A stretch of 64,000 bases of DNA from a phage: the sequence record PZ445435.1; one strand, 5' to 3'. Both the position numbers and the translations under genes were made by a program. Positions within the stretch are counted from its first letter, which is position 1, and every line of letters begins with the position of its first letter. Below the pieces are notes generated by a model. That model searched no databases. It was not told where the DNA came from and saw only the letters and a list, made by a program, of their open reading frames with translations. Below are positions 18,839-61,433 of the stretch, in pieces.

Positions 18839-19747
18839 TTAAAGGTCATTCAAAAGGTCATCCAGGTCCGTGTCATCAGCACTAGATGAACTGCCAGAGC
18901 TTGAGCTCATAAAATCATCTTCAGTTTTTGTTTTGAAGTCATCAACATTGAATGCATCCAAATCATCAGCAACTTTATCAGCTTTCTTAGCGGCAGTTGC
19001 TGCGGCACCACCCATAGCAGCAGTTCCCATAACTTGACTGAACTTAGTGCTCAGTTCTTCAAATGATTTGAATTTATCTTTAGAAGTCATTTCAGAAAGG
19101 TCAACCATTTGTTCGAACAGTTCTTTCTGGAAAGATTCATCGTCAATGTTTGGAATCGCAGATTGATTCAGGAATTTAGATTCATCGTAATTACTAAATC
19201 CAGAAACCTGTTTAACTTTCAGTACAAAGTTAGCACCTTCCCACGGACAAGTTACATCAACTGGAGTTTCACCCATTTCAACATCAACCGCAATCATTGC
19301 ATTGATTTTATCCCAGATTTTCTTACCGAAACGGTATTTAAATACTTTACCTTCGTTTTCTGGAGCAGCTGGGTCTTTTACTACAAGAATGTTAGCCCAG
19401 TAAGAAGTTTTACGTTTAACAAGACTGTACTCTTTATTGTCAGTGTTGTACAGATCATTTTTACTAATGTATTGACATACTGGGCAAGAATCGTAATCAC
19501 CGTGGGTAGATGAACAGTTTTCAATATACCATTTACCATTTTTCTTGAAACCGTGATTTACAAGAATTGCGAATGGTGCTTGTTCATCATTTTTAGACGG
19601 AAGAAAACGAATTACTGCTTGACCGTTACCCGCATTGTCGAGTTTCAGTTTCCACTCGCCTTTATCTTCAGAAGAAAAACCACCTTTATTTCCAGCCAGT
19701 TTAGCCATTTGTGCAGCGAGTTCAGCAGTAGATTTACGTTTAAACAT
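18839..19747 (-). CDS. 32: single-stranded DNA-binding protein gp32
   Basis: Matches recalled T4 gp32, acidic Ser/Asp-rich C-terminal tail. Confidence 0.95.
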
Positions 19748-56759: not shown

Positions 56760-56960
56760 ATGGTACAAAAATTAATGGCACTTGTTAATGCCATAAAAGG
56801 TAATAAGAAACGTATAGCTTTTACTATTTCTGCTATGGTAGGAATTTTACTCTGGAACTTTATTTTATCACCTGTTGCAATTGCACATGGTATTAATATT
56901 CCAGTAGTTACTCTTGATACATTCGTAGATTTAGCATTTGCTTTAGTTGGGTTAATTTAA
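56760..56960 (+). CDS. small membrane protein (66 aa) on plus strand in the 56-61 gap
   Basis: Strong AAGGAGG SD 7 nt upstream of ATG; two hydrophobic segments. Confidence 0.35.
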   Translation: MVQKLMALVNAIKGNKKRIAFTISAMVGILLWNFILSPVAIAHGINIPVVTLDTFVDLAFALVGLI

Positions 56961-57985
56961 ATCTTAGCATATTTAGATAGCCGCATTTTAGCCATCAACC
57001 CCTGGGCAATATTATTTTTCATATATTCCATAATTTGTTCAGGGGTTGCACCTTCCTTTCTAATCATATCATTAACATCTTTTGATTTCCAGGGAGATTT
57101 ATCCCAAAACATAACCCTTTCTCCTGCATCAACTAATTTAGTCATTCGTTTGATAGTGTCAGGGTGACGAGGTTCATTATCTAAAACCCACACTCGTCTA
57201 TCTTTAAATGGAACAACTTCTAGGTCTAATTGACCACCCGTAATAGCTATACCATTTTCAATAAAAAGTGAATCTATAGGTCCTTCTAGAACATATACAT
57301 CACCATCTTTAACTCGTTCGACTCCATATATTTTTGTTGCCTCAGGATAAGCTTTGATGGTGATATATTTTTGAGGAGCATCTTTCTTTAATGCACGTCC
57401 TTGAAAAGACTCAGCTTTTCCATTAGCATTATAAATTGGAATAACAAGACGAGGCTCAGAAATTTCCTTTTTGTATGTTCCCGGTGCTATGCTATTAACT
57501 AATTTAGGCCATTCGGTTGTAAACCAAAGATATTTCCATTTATCCTTTGGAATACAACGAGCTTTTACATATTTTATAATTGGATGGTCTTCCGCCAGTT
57601 TATCTAATCTAACGCATGACGGAAGAGATTTAATTATTTTCTTCTCAGGTTGTTTAGGAAGTTCTTTAGGTTTTTCTACTGGACGACTTTTACCTTTTTC
57701 TTTTCTTATTTCAAAGATATACTCACGATATAAATCAGGTTCAAACTCCTTTAAATATATTCCGATTGGTGCATGATAGTTACAGTTATAACAATGAATA
57801 TTTCCTTCATTATTATCACCATAATACCATCCACGAGCTTTATTCTGGTCGGTTTTTGAATCTCCACAAACAGGGCATCTAAACCGTAATTTAAAAGTTG
57901 AACTATTATTTACTTGTGTGAATTTAGGTAAATGAGCTAATGCACGGTATGCAAACTCATTATCAATCCAAGGTATTGATGACAT
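56957..57985 (-). CDS. 61: DNA primase gp61
   Basis: 342 aa; N-terminal CxxC...CxxC zinc ribbon plus TOPRIM. Confidence 0.9.
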   Translation of the reverse strand: MSSIPWIDNEFAYRALAHLPKFTQVNNSSTFKLRFRCPVCGDSKTDQNKARGWYYGDNNEGNIHCYNCNYHAPIGIYLKEFEPDLYREYIFEIRKEKGKSRPVEKPKELPKQPEKKIIKSLPSCVRLDKLAEDHPIIKYVKARCIPKDKWKYLWFTTEWPKLVNSIAPGTYKKEISEPRLVIPIYNANGKAESFQGRALKKDAPQKYITIKAYPEATKIYGVERVKDGDVYVLEGPIDSLFIENGIAITGGQLDLEVVPFKDRRVWVLDNEPRHPDTIKRMTKLVDAGERVMFWDKSPWKSKDVNDMIRKEGATPEQIMEYMKNNIAQGLMAKMRLSKYAKI

Positions 57986-57987
57986 TT

Positions 57988-58152
57988 TTACTCTTCTTTT
58001 TCTTTAGATTCCTCTTTTTTCTTTTTAGGAATCTGTTCAGGACCTTTATTTACTACAGCGCCTGACGTTGTTCCAGTAGAGATATTTTCAGGATTACCAC
58101 CTGAATCTCCAGCGACCATATCTTCTTTGATAAATTCTTTATATGTTTTCAT
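57988..58152 (-). CDS. small hydrophilic Lys/Glu-rich ORF (54 aa, not in track)
   Basis: Own translation. Confidence 0.3.
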   Translation of the reverse strand: MKTYKEFIKEDMVAGDSGGNPENISTGTTSGAVVNKGPEQIPKKKKEESKEKEE

Positions 58153-58153
58153 A

Positions 58154-58510
58154 TTAACCTCTATTCATAAAAGCATTAAAAATTTGGTCATCAATAGATG
58201 GTGCAGTAATATTTTCTGCATCATTTAGCAAATCATTAATTTCATCAGATAGCATAACACATGTACCTTTATTTCCTGTAATTGTTACTGCACAATTACG
58301 AACGTTTTCTTTATCAAATTTTAGGTTAATATTTTCGTAGTGAAAATCCTTTAATGCCGAATATATCTTTAAAATAAAATTGTCTTTTACTACAATAAAC
58401 CCAACCTCACTATTAAAACGTGGTTCATGGAAACTGTAATAAACCTTTTCATCTATAAAATCGTATGAAATTTTTTCCATTTTTAAATATGAAAATTCAG
58501 AACTATACAT
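58154..58510 (-). CDS. hypothetical protein (118 aa), single-domain paralogue of next ORF
   Basis: Shares FIVVKDN-type core and C-terminal SIDDQIFNAFMNRG with 215-aa neighbour. Confidence 0.5.
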   Translation of the reverse strand: MYSSEFSYLKMEKISYDFIDEKVYYSFHEPRFNSEVGFIVVKDNFILKIYSALKDFHYENINLKFDKENVRNCAVTITGNKGTCVMLSDEINDLLNDAENITAPSIDDQIFNAFMNRG

Positions 58511-58511
58511 A

Positions 58512-59159
58512 TTAACCTTTATTCATAAAAGCATTAAAAATTTGATCGTCAATAGAAACTTTTACTTTAGGCTGTTCTTCAAACGGTAATTCATATCCAC
58601 ATATTACAATTTTGTGATCGATACCAAAATACACAGAAGCAATATGATTAATATTATTTTCAGTGAAATCTAAATCAACATCAATATCTTTTTGACTAAC
58701 GCTCAAAGGATAATTAATACGAATAATTCGATTATCTTTAACAAAGATTCCACCGACATACTCTGTGTTGCGTTTAAAGTTTACACGTTTCCTAAATGAA
58801 AAATATTCAGGTTCTTTATGAGCCCGACTCATAGGACACAATGAGTAGCTAGAATAAGAGATGTCAAATCCTACACCTTCAATATGAATATGAGCCAACG
58901 TGTCATGATTAAACCAATTATAATCATATGCCAAATCCATTATATTGTAATATGTGAAAGGCACCGGATTAACATCATATGTTGTACCTTTAAAATCTGC
59001 CCAGGCAACGATTTCGTTATCTTTAACAATTACAAAAATTGTGCCAATAAGATATCCACGGTTATTTTCATCAGGTGTTATATTATAACATTGTGCATCA
59101 GGAAATTTACCGTATTTAAACGGTGGATTTTTGTGCATATAATAAATCATATTATTCAC
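58512..59159 (-). CDS. hypothetical protein (215 aa), two-domain paralogue
   Basis: Internal duplication; identical C-terminal 14-aa module. Confidence 0.5.
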   Translation of the reverse strand: MNNMIYYMHKNPPFKYGKFPDAQCYNITPDENNRGYLIGTIFVIVKDNEIVAWADFKGTTYDVNPVPFTYYNIMDLAYDYNWFNHDTLAHIHIEGVGFDISYSSYSLCPMSRAHKEPEYFSFRKRVNFKRNTEYVGGIFVKDNRIIRINYPLSVSQKDIDVDLDFTENNINHIASVYFGIDHKIVICGYELPFEEQPKVKVSIDDQIFNAFMNKG

Positions 59160-59445
59160 CTGTGATTTCGGTTACGATATTTTTGTTATTAAAGTTTTTA
59201 TCGCAATACAGAACATAATTATACTGCATTACACCACCAGACTTAAGTTGTTTTTGCACTTCAGCTTTCATTTCAGGACGATCGCGCTCAACGATATTCA
59301 TAATATCTGCTTCAATTTGGGTTTCAACTTCAGTCTGATCCGCAGTCATAGACCATTCGCACAAATCTTTATCATAGCCTGCCATAGCAGGCTGAGCAGC
59401 ACAAGAAGCCAAAGTAAAAATTGTAGCAAAAATAAATTTTTTCAT
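59152..59445 (-). CDS. sp: probable Spackle (periplasmic superinfection-exclusion protein)
   Basis: 97 aa with cleavable signal peptide; position between 61 and 41. Confidence 0.55.
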   Translation of the reverse strand: MKKFIFATIFTLASCAAQPAMAGYDKDLCEWSMTADQTEVETQIEADIMNIVERDRPEMKAEVQKQLKSGGVMQYNYVLYCDKNFNNKNIVTEITGE

Positions 59446-59505
59446 GATAATCTCCTCAGTAGTTTATGTTTATATAGTATCTCAATTTCCAACAAAAGTA
59501 AACAG

Positions 59506-59805
59506 CTATTTTAAAACTTCTGCATAATCACATGTTACAAACTGTTTCTCTAGCTTGACGATTTTACGAAAGTATCTTTTGCATTGGCGAATCTGTCGCT
59601 TCGTGGGGCGAACAGCAAACTTAATAAATTCCACTCGACCAAATGGAGGACTTTCTTCTGCTGGAATATCTAACACCAATTCCCACGTATCTGCAATAAG
59701 TGCTTTGAATTGAGTATTTTTCCTGACGTTATACGGAGTAGGTTTAAATAAAACAATATGCATATTATCCTCGGCAATCCACTTCGCACACTTTCTTGTC
59801 ATCAA
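59506..59805 (-). CDS. hypothetical protein (99 aa)
   Basis: ORF track. Confidence 0.45.
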   Translation of the reverse strand: MMTRKCAKWIAEDNMHIVLFKPTPYNVRKNTQFKALIADTWELVLDIPAEESPPFGRVEFIKFAVRPTKRQIRQCKRYFRKIVKLEKQFVTCDYAEVLK

Positions 59806-59947
59806 TGAAAGCTTTAACTAATGCTTTATTAACTTCAGCATATTGAGTAGTAGCCCATTGAACGTCATCTTTCATCATTGTGATTTCTTTAGTAAACATG
59901 CTTTCATTCTTAAACCACCCCATAAAAACTACCTTTACCAATTCCAT
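59765..59947 (-). CDS. hypothetical protein (60 aa)
   Basis: ORF track. Confidence 0.4.
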   Translation of the reverse strand: MELVKVVFMGWFKNESMFTKEITMMKDDVQWATTQYAEVNKALVKAFIDDKKVCEVDCRG

Positions 59948-59976: not shown

Positions 59977-60006
59977 ACTATACCATAGTCTTGTCAGCTT
60001 GTAAAC
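59977..60006 (-). promoter_or_regulatory. T4-type early promoter (GTTTACA, TATAGT within inverted repeat AAGACTA...TAGTCTT)
   Basis: Motif and spacing; overlaps gene 41 stop. Confidence 0.55.
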
Positions 60007-61433
60007 TAAAATTTTAATTCATTTGCCAAAGCATCTAACTGAGCTCGAGTGGATTCATTTCTTTGATAGCGATTCTGCTCAGCCTGAATCTGTTGTGAAC
60101 CTGCTACTTCACTCACTTCAGTTGGAGTAGAATCTTGTTCAATTTCTACCCATTTTTGATTTCCTTTTTGAACACCCATCAAAAACTTATTCCACTTATT
60201 CTTATCACCATATCGTGATTTGATTTGCTTAATGAGTTGTTGTTCAGCAGCTGCTAGCTCCTCGGTTTCAATGACCGCAAGCATAAAATCAGCTGTTGCT
60301 GGAAGACCAGCAGATTCTGCAATATCGCTCATGTTAACATCGGAAGAGTCCCAAGCTTGTTTACCAACCTGTGCTGCAGTCCAAAGAACAGTTTCGGTTT
60401 CAACAGCCAGAGCACGCAATTCCTCTGCGATAGCTTTAACAGTTGTGTAACTATTTTCTGAATAAACTCTAATGCGGCAAGATTTACAAATACCTAGATA
60501 GTCGACAATAATGATTGTTGGAACAAAATTCTTCTTGAGCTTTAATTCATTTAAAAGTGATCGAAATGTATTAGCGTCTGCTCCACCAGTAGGATATTGC
60601 TTAACGATTAAACGACCAAGGGTAGATTTCTCACGCCATTTTTCCATTTTTCCTTTATACTCAGCGTAAGAAATATGCCCATCATCAATGTCATCAAGAG
60701 AAACATCGAGCATGTTAGCATCAATACGTTTAGCACAGACTTCTTCTGCCATTTCCATGGAGATATAAAGAACGTTATGACCAAGCTGCAAATAATCTGC
60801 TGCCAATGAACACAGACCTAATGACTTACCAACGTTAACGCCAGCCATTAAAACGTTCAGTGTTCCAGTCTCAGCTCCACCTTTCGTAATTTTGTTTAGA
60901 ATTCTGAGTTTAAATGGAACCTTACGAGCTTTATTCATATAAGATAGCCAACGCGCTTCATAGTCATCCATCCAATCATGACCAACGTAGCTATCAAATG
61001 AAATTGATAATGCTTGGCGCATGATGTCAGGAATAGCACCTACATCTGGCATTTTCTTATTTCGTTTTTCCGGAGGAAGCTCAGCATTAGTTTGAATTTC
61101 GATTATTTTAGACGTAGCATTAAACATCGCCCTTTGCTGAACATATTTTTCTGTTTCTTTTACTAACCAGCTGTGGTCTTCTGGAGAATCAGCCAGTTTT
61201 GAAATAAGTGTTTTTACACCAGAATATTCTGTTTCAGTAAATGAACTATTTTCTAATGCAACATTTAACGCATTAATAGATGGAACGCTATGATACTCAT
61301 TAACATGAGATTTAATTAATTTGAATGTATTTTTAGCTGGACCACTTTCAAAATATTCTGAATCCATATATGGCCAAACTTTTGAAAAATAAGCTTGATC
61401 AAATATGAGATGAGAAAGAATAATTTCTACCAC
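60006..61433 (-). CDS. 41: replicative DNA helicase gp41 (DnaB family)
   Basis: 475 aa; GVNVGKS Walker A; GTG start codon. Confidence 0.95.
   Translation of the reverse strand: MVEIILSHLIFDQAYFSKVWPYMDSEYFESGPAKNTFKLIKSHVNEYHSVPSINALNVALENSSFTETEYSGVKTLISKLADSPEDHSWLVKETEKYVQQRAMFNATSKIIEIQTNAELPPEKRNKKMPDVGAIPDIMRQALSISFDSYVGHDWMDDYEARWLSYMNKARKVPFKLRILNKITKGGAETGTLNVLMAGVNVGKSLGLCSLAADYLQLGHNVLYISMEMAEEVCAKRIDANMLDVSLDDIDDGHISYAEYKGKMEKWREKSTLGRLIVKQYPTGGADANTFRSLLNELKLKKNFVPTIIIVDYLGICKSCRIRVYSENSYTTVKAIAEELRALAVETETVLWTAAQVGKQAWDSSDVNMSDIAESAGLPATADFMLAVIETEELAAAEQQLIKQIKSRYGDKNKWNKFLMGVQKGNQKWVEIEQDSTPTEVSEVAGSQQIQAEQNRYQRNESTRAQLDALANELKF

Follow-up and report, generated by a model that had tools for sequence, protein, structure and literature searches.

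Gene content of the AdfA slot

In order to describe the interval between primase gene 61 and helicase gene 41, a 64,000-nucleotide (nt) stretch of phage DNA (record PZ445435.1, hereafter the window) was analyzed, with emphasis on two adjacent open reading frames (ORFs) of 215 and 118 amino acids (aa) that follow the spackle gene (sp) and end in a common 14-residue tail. The 1.6-kb stretch matched, at 100% identity, the Tequatrovirus PaulHMueller, an Escherichia phage of the BASEL collection (Bas45, MZ501098), and all genes of the interval are carried on the minus strand (Table 1). The AdfA slot of the T-even anti-toxin island (dmd-tifA-sp-adfA) is the position that follows spackle. The same interval has been published as a candidate anti-toxin-antitoxin (anti-TA) island, its other genes being suggested as antitoxin candidates (PMC9391042).

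The larger ORF is AdfA (anti-DarT factor A) itself. It was initially read as 215 aa from a GTG at 59159 (58512-59159); the ATG at 59150, which is the start in the GenBank record (MZ501098) and in all homologues, yields 212 aa. The 212-aa ORF matched Pfam PF23813 over profile positions 1-211 of 211 (E 1.4e-136), was 73% identical to T4 gp61.2 and 82% identical to RB69 AdfA, and lies directly 3' of sp in the 61-41 interval. The initial annotation, made from the sequence alone, had proposed a candidate counter-defence locus in a region reported to encode an anti-DarT factor in T4, with spackle directly upstream; the identity of the larger ORF, the published anti-TA island and a Pfam T4_Spackle match (E 5.8e-45) bear this out. 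Residue His169 corresponds to position 164 of RB69 AdfA, the DarT1-binding switch (NINHIAS in the window vs. NINRIAS in RB69). The R164H substitution in RB69 AdfA switches on DarT1 binding in two-hybrid assays (PMC11257639), and the window AdfA carries this DarT1-neutralising histidine allele. Binding and neutralisation of DarT have been published for RB69 AdfA(R164H) and T4 AdfA only (PMC11257639), and deletion of adfA in T4 gave no phenotype, AdfN being the main anti-DarTG1 factor (PMC11257639, PMC11825919). Position 164 also occurs as Asn (NINNIAS) in several viral and metagenome contigs (L023, L029, and L030), an allele additional to the two in the literature, His and Arg. The window AdfA has 212 aa compared to 210 aa in its closest relatives because a 6-nt tandem duplication (58881-58892; CATATT CATATT on the coding strand) inserts His-Ile (HIHIEGV vs. 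HIEGV).

The family of the 118-aa ORF, annotated only as hypothetical, spans 337 phage records. The ORF is intact (at least 80% coverage) in 336 of these, including diverged Gaprivervirus versions at 43-49% identity, and in the window it is preceded by a ribosome-binding site of its own, spaced as usual from its ATG. Against the Pfam AdfA model it scored 31.9 bits (cut-off 27); since the match spans profile positions 113-211 only and the tail supplies part of the score, the 118-aa protein is regarded as a half-length paralogue and not as a canonical AdfA member. With the tail retained, hhalign aligned it collinearly to AdfA residues ~97-212 (probability 97.6-97.8%, E 4.5e-12 to 7.7e-13). Because the identical tail supplies much of the hhalign score, the tests were repeated without the last 14 residues, yielding E 0.0026 with a shallow profile and E 8.6e-4 over 57 columns with a more diverse one, and a Smith-Waterman score of 59 against 28.7+/-5.4 in shuffles, of which 0/3000 reached 59. 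A Foldseek search with the AdfA model matched the 118-aa type (type B) at E 3.4e-4; it returned no other match outside the AdfA/type-B family, and no fold could be assigned. Searches of Rfam and NCBIfam gave zero matches. The 118-aa protein and AdfA are therefore diverged paralogues beyond their common tail, as first proposed, and the finding named beforehand as speaking against paralogy, a shared C-terminus as the sole similarity, is not what the tail-trimmed tests show. The residue of the 118-aa protein opposite the His/Arg switch of AdfA is Asn72, the alignment there being weak.

The initial annotation also saw two copies in the 215-aa protein of a core that the 118-aa protein has once. The VKDN motif is indeed present twice in the former and once in the latter; the claim beyond this rests on that short motif and on a model of moderate confidence. 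In an hhalign comparison of the N- and C-terminal halves of AdfA, 11 columns around VKDNxI were matched (E 0.0025, probability 12%), and the 118-aa body compared to the AdfA N-terminal half gave p ~0.04 (Smith-Waterman). In the AlphaFold (AF2) model of AdfA, with a mean predicted local distance difference test score (pLDDT) of 67, each half consists of five strands followed by a helix; the VKDN turn connects strands 3 and 4, and an NI..[LI]A...Y helix is comparably spaced in both halves. An internal duplication within AdfA would thus be plausible, if weakly supported.

Table 1. Features of the 61-41 interval of the window, listed in transcription order.
Feature	Coordinates	Strand	Basis or remark
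Helicase 41	60006-61433	minus	First in transcription order
dmd (T4 gene 61.5), anti-RnlA/LsoA antitoxin	59765-59947	minus	MZ501098 annotation; PMC9391042
tifA (T4 gene 61.4), ToxN inhibitor	59506-59763	minus	Pfam DUF7279 E 1.7e-20; 258 nt in MZ501098; TifA = 61.4 per PMC9391042
sp (spackle), upstream border of variable slot	59152-59445	minus	Pfam PF25676 (T4_Spackle)
adfA (T4 gene 61.2), anti-DarT factor A, 212 aa	58512-59150	minus	Pfam PF23813, phrog_3781
AdfA His169 codon	58644-58646	minus	RB69 AdfA position 164
Repeat copy 2	58508-58556	minus	AdfA tail codons S199-G212 (58515-58556), TAA, AAGG ribosome-binding site and ATG of 118-aa gene
P61-like promoter, copy 2 (predicted)	58502-58536	minus	Box 58527-58536; spacer ATGAATAAAGGT; -10 TAATAT 58509-58514; predicted start ~58502
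118-aa half-size AdfA paralogue (type B; RB32ORF033c family, phrog_4122)	58154-58510	minus	Profile and shuffle tests
Repeat copy 1	58150-58198	minus	118-aa tail codons (58157-58198), TAA, GAGG ribosome-binding site and ATG of 61.1
P61 orthologue, copy 1	58144-58178	minus	Box TAATGCTTTT 58169-58178; 12-nt spacer; -10 TAATAT 58151-58156; predicted start 58144
Gene 61.1, 54 aa	57988-58152	minus	phrog_1823 E 7e-34; T4 synteny; ribosome-binding site and ATG within repeat copy 1
Primase 61	56957-57985	minus	Last in transcription order

Outside the slot, a 66-aa hydrophobic ORF (56760-56960, plus strand) runs antisense over the 3' end of primase gene 61. Its position is kept in T2, RB69, Dhakavirus, and Gaprivervirus, where it is labelled hypothetical or 'holin family'; T4 instead carries dam in this neighbourhood.

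The junction repeat and the middle promoter P61

Both ORFs finish with SIDDQIFNAFMN followed by R or K and a final G, as had been noted from the sequence. The tail codons form part of a 49-nt direct repeat whose two copies, 358 nt apart, are identical at 46/49 positions (94%); the chance expectation of a match of at least 46/49 anywhere in the 1.6-kb stretch is ~1e-15 (binomial). The near-perfect repeat described initially is thereby upheld, with its second copy one base away from the position first assigned and with 7 nt shared after the last sense codon in place of the ~12 nt claimed. Each copy comprises the 14 codons, TAA, a single T, and the ATG of the next cistron. AdfA ends in NKG whenever the 118-aa gene comes next, and the gene adjoining 61.1 ends in NRG (the window/L003, L023, L029, L030, and L037 versus L001, L007, L010, L011, and L022), which places the cassette junction within the tail.

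The first reading overlooked two components of the repeat, namely the T4 middle promoter P61, whose position has been mapped, and the signals for translating the next gene. The T4 P61 start site is 19122 (Hinton 2010, PMC2988021 Table 1, crediting Marshall, Sharma & Hinton 1999), and the consensus for MotA promoters is a box, wwwTGCTTtA, 12+/-1 bp upstream of a sigma-70 -10 element (TAtaaT) (PMC2988021). Position 19122 is an A; counted from the A of the 61.1 start codon, it lies 8 nt downstream. The T4 MotA box TAATGCTTTT agrees with 9/10 of the consensus and lies on the N-A-F codons of the tail; the 12-nt spacer ATGAATAGAGGT encodes M-N-R-G and holds the GAGG ribosome-binding site; and TAATAT at -12 to -7 overlaps the adfA TAA stop and the AT of the 61.1 ATG. 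Together, box, spacer, and -10 put the +1 position exactly at 19122. Copy 1 of the window repeats the T4 sequence from the MotA box through the 61.1 ATG, with its predicted start likewise 8 nt past the A of that ATG. Copy 2 has the identical box and -10 element and a single spacer change, and its predicted start falls inside the 5' end of the 118-aa ORF. Both copies fit the MotA consensus (TAATGCTTTT at 9/10, 12-nt spacer, TAATAT), and both sites are independently annotated as promoters in the related phage Lutter (MT682714); scanning for generic sigma-70 promoters and terminators gave no information on promoters of the MotA type. The window phage thus has two P61 copies, 358 bp apart, the second presumably active as judged from its sequence.

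Because transcription from either P61 copy would begin just past the next ORF's ATG, translation of the 118-aa protein and gp61.1 would require longer upstream (early) transcripts, and the P61 copies appear to serve the genes farther downstream. Upstream of sp, at 59446-59520 on the minus strand, GTTTACTTTTGTTGGAAATTGAGATACTAT is followed by TATAAACA; the Lutter record lists these as promoters, apparently early-type and late-like, and the mRNA that yields AdfA and the 118-aa protein probably originates there.

The tail was carried by every family member found through similarity of the body. This holds independently of the tail, since tblastn with the bodies recovered 486 AdfA, 337 type-B, and 86 type-C genes (909 in all) and unconstrained blastn of the tail recovered 908 copies. 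Between genera the tail DNA varies at third codon positions (GCT/GCC/GCA, TTT/TTC, CAA/CAG, GAT/GAC, ATT/ATA), part of this set stemming from a codon-constrained scan, and some of the changes alter the MotA core and leave the peptide unchanged. The ratio of nonsynonymous to synonymous substitution rates (dN/dS) in the tail was 0.07-0.08, and a further 21 nt on the upstream side of the MotA box (7 codons, SIDDQIF) are conserved as well. Amphipathicity of the tail was no higher than in shuffles (p 0.3), and any likeness of the tail to the clamp-binding C-termini of T4 is poor. The repeat is thus a junction cassette in which three codes overlap, namely a peptide tail, a middle promoter, and translation signals. 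Constraint on peptide and on DNA both apply, the promoter and ribosome-binding site adding nucleotide-level constraint within Tequatrovirus, and much of the near-perfect nucleotide identity of the two copies is attributable to the latter.

Distribution and mode of evolution

The slot was compared in a three-way alignment plus further loci. In T4, sp is followed by adfA and then 61.1, with exactly one 358-bp repeat period fewer than in the window phage, where adfA, the 118-aa gene, and 61.1 follow sp in that order. In T2 only the 118-aa gene lies between sp and 61.1. Copy number therefore varies among T-even phages, as had been anticipated. RB69 (Mosigvirus) has adfA (Arg allele) followed by other small ORFs, Gaprivervirus has a 145-aa ORF (phrog_8539) followed by a 117-122-aa type-B ORF, both tail-bearing, and Dhakavirus has the 145-aa ORF alone. 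Three tail-bearing families (AdfA, 118-aa, and 145-aa) thus occupy the post-spackle slot in four genera of Tevenvirinae. The 908 tail copies were distributed over 709 phage records, so that ~199 genomes hold two tail-bearing genes; as estimated from the class below 60% identity, ~127 genomes appear to have the 118-aa type as their only member. T2 has been described as naturally lacking an adfA homologue, in a count that covers full-length genes only (PMC11825919). In T2, the sp stop and the 118-aa start are separated by 12 nt (L002 2489-2500), TTAGAGGTTAGT, that resemble the end of the AdfA tail cassette, ATAGAGGTTAAT; they may have been left behind by a deletion of adfA, or may be no more than a ribosome-binding site.

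Wider searches were consistent in confining the family to Tevenvirinae. An exhaustive HMMER profile search of 1.84 billion representatives gave only 6 matches, all AdfA or fragments thereof, and word-indexed searches for wider relatives returned only close relatives or fragments. In viral and metagenome contigs, codon-pattern scans found no body type beyond the three already known, and in 185,579 prokaryotic genomes they found no instance.

A split-AdfA arrangement, in which the Gaprivervirus 145-aa and 122-aa ORFs would represent the N- and C-terminal halves of AdfA, was considered and rejected, the 145-aa protein giving Smith-Waterman p 0.04-0.37 and hhalign E 0.089 against the AdfA N-terminal half. 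An 8-residue motif, K-x-P-[ND]-A-Q-x-Y, is common to AdfA (residues 15-22; window 59090-59150) and the 145-aa family (residues 14-21; L005 2062-2130) at the same distance from the N-terminus; this likeness is not statistically significant (hhalign E 0.089). Annotation of the 145-aa family is uneven. In EAWsc9 (PQ341120, L005 2062-2499) the tail-bearing 145-aa ORF is labelled 'serine/threonine protein kinase' and the next ORF 'DUF2528 domain-containing protein', neither label being supported by Pfam, and in CLB_P2 a late annotated start shortens the product of the 145-aa gene to 122 aa.

All three families had dN/dS values of 0.15-0.34 (0.17-0.33 for the 118-aa family), indicating purifying selection, with variation arising by gain and loss of cassettes and not by fast sequence evolution. 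The description of the locus as rapidly evolving is thus not sustained at the sequence level. Sources of variation are the cassette content, the alleles at AdfA position 164, and mosaicism within AdfA, whose first ~60 codons (58970-59150) are RB69-like (synonymous rate, dS, 0.44 vs. RB69) and saturated against T4 (dS 1.6; nonsynonymous rate, dN, 0.55), with the remainder T4-like (dS 0.2-0.4).

Functional interpretation and comparison with known systems

Taken together, the results are best explained by a two-cistron AdfA slot with a multi-purpose junction cassette, in which phages differ by whole cassettes, with a presumed origin by duplication and a presumed inhibitor role; we assign this explanation a probability of roughly 0.7. 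The 118-aa gene would stem from a partial tandem duplication covering the 3' half of an adfA-like gene and its promoter cassette. The repeat would since have been kept by two constraints, on the peptide and on the promoter and translation signals, supplying homology for the gain and loss of cassettes. Both proteins would be made from the early sp-adfA-...-61 transcript, and each P61 copy would feed middle-mode expression of the downstream genes (61.1 and primase 61). The 118-aa protein would be a putative AdfA-like stoichiometric toxin binder and inhibitor, its putative target being a DarT-type ADP-ribosyltransferase variant other than the tested DarT1; the diverged body would set specificity and the conserved tail would provide a shared structural or contact element. 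A single-domain AdfA-like inhibitor of a different toxin variant is the best inference for this protein, in keeping with the proposal that further genes of the anti-TA island may be antitoxins (PMC9391042).

Several observations weigh against this explanation. Identity between the 118-aa body and the AdfA core is modest (~33% over the 57 aligned columns), AlphaFold confidence is only moderate (pLDDT 67 for AdfA and 60 for the 118-aa protein), and the models disagree in the region of residue 164, which is a helix in AdfA and coil or strand in the paralogue. The 145-aa family has no detectable similarity to AdfA or the 118-aa family except for the tail. The second promoter copy is a prediction, and the MotA-box core is altered in Gaprivervirus and RB69 (TGCC.., TGCA..), so that the promoter role may be genus-specific. 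The comparison is compatible with duplication or deletion as the direction of events, and the inhibitor role of the 118-aa protein is a candidate function. Lastly, T2 without adfN forms no plaques on DarTG1 cells (PMC11825919); as T2 has the 118-aa gene and no adfA, the 118-aa protein appears not to neutralise that DarT1 at its native level.

Part of the evidence would also follow if the tail were a by-product of a DNA regulatory cassette (P61, ribosome-binding site, and stop/start), with unrelated genes of the slot inheriting its codons, the peptide being functionless and the proteins forming no family. MotA box, spacer, and -10 span the last 7 codons plus the stop and start, nucleotide identity collapses directly upstream of the repeat, and the 145-aa family detectably shares only the tail (p 0.04-0.37; hhalign E 0.089). 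Such an origin is nevertheless unlikely, given that conservation extends 21 nt (SIDDQIF) upstream of the MotA box, that synonymous third-position changes between genera alter the MotA core and keep the peptide, that the tail dN/dS is 0.07-0.08, that the same reading frame is used in all three families, and that the 118-aa body is homologous to the C-terminal half of AdfA even without the tail. The two constraints of the preferred explanation could moreover be joined by gene conversion, since recent recombination between long-separated genes, producing concerted 3' ends, can add to that explanation rather than replace it. As a sole cause, free of selection on peptide or promoter, conversion is very improbable, because within-genome events alone cannot explain a tail kept across four genera and three families. 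The paralogous tails of the window do differ at only 2 synonymous sites (proportion of synonymous differences, pS, ~0.28), compared to pS 0.59 for the orthologous AdfA tails of the window and RB69, and those of DK-13 are identical over 27 nt, with 4 differing sites in EAWsc9; these numbers are, however, tiny (~7 synonymous sites).

There is similarly little likelihood that the 118-aa ORF is a decaying partial adfA duplicate, kept only for a second promoter or for spacing and encoding no functional protein. An ORF intact in 336/337 records, including Gaprivervirus versions at 43-49% identity, with dN/dS of 0.17-0.33, its own ribosome-binding site and ATG at the usual spacing, and retention as the sole family member in ~127 genomes is difficult to reconcile with decay, even though the ORF corresponds to only half of AdfA, T4 does without it, T2 with this gene alone is DarTG1-sensitive without adfN, and the predicted start of the duplicated promoter falls past the 118-aa ATG. 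A more far-reaching proposal, which we consider doubtful, is that the tail SIDDQIFNAFMN(R/K)G is a portable docking peptide on three different inhibitor bodies, bringing each to one common partner such as a conserved DarT-type surface or a replisome component at the single-stranded DNA attacked by DarT. The tail DNA would then also act as promoter and recombination linker, yielding modular counter-defence cassettes of Tevenvirinae with each body directed against a different toxin variant.

A half-size paralogue of AdfA is present in about half of the T4-like coliphages and a third tail-bearing family in Dhaka- and Gaprivervirus. The 118-aa and 145-aa families are accordingly two candidates for unexplained T-even resistances, e.g. 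to DarTG2 or other DarT variants. There is also a practical consequence, in that deleting or recoding the 3' end of adfA or of the 118-aa gene removes a P61 copy and the translation signals of the next cistron, and this removal could confound knock-out phenotypes of either gene. Within a small space, the locus combines overlapping codes for peptide, promoter, ribosome-binding site, and start, kept as a repeat.

Among known systems, polymorphic toxin/immunity cassettes are similar in that a constant short module, here the tail, is carried on alternative bodies at one locus with cassette-like presence and absence. Here the constant part is C-terminal and 14 residues long, and there are three body types only; the parallel is an analogy only. 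T4 P61 is matched by copy 1 from the MotA box through the 61.1 ATG and by copy 2 in its box, -10 element, and 12-nt spacer length, whereas T4 has one copy compared to the two found here, 358 bp apart, the predicted second start lying inside the 118-aa ORF. The T4 anti-TA island (dmd, tifA/61.4, and adfA/61.2; Srikant, Guegler & Laub 2022, PMC9391042) occupies the same genomic interval. Laboratory dmd-tifA amplifications recombine at microhomologies of 6-10 bp (PMC9391042), and the natural gain and loss of whole cistrons at short repeats parallels them; in contrast, the homology here is a 49-nt functional cassette, and the duplicates have diverged into distinct proteins instead of serving as dosage amplifications. 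With AdfA itself (T4 gp61.2, RB69 ORF034, PF23813), the 212-aa ORF agrees over its full length, in its His allele, and in its place after sp. The 118-aa ORF resembles AdfA in matching the C-terminal half of the model above the Pfam cut-off and in sharing the tail and the slot, but it lacks the whole N-terminal half, is ~33% identical over the aligned core, carries Asn at the His/Arg switch and, as the T2 data indicate, fails to neutralise the tested DarT1. Viewed against these systems, the locus departs modestly from a known counter-defence locus, and most of it is explained.

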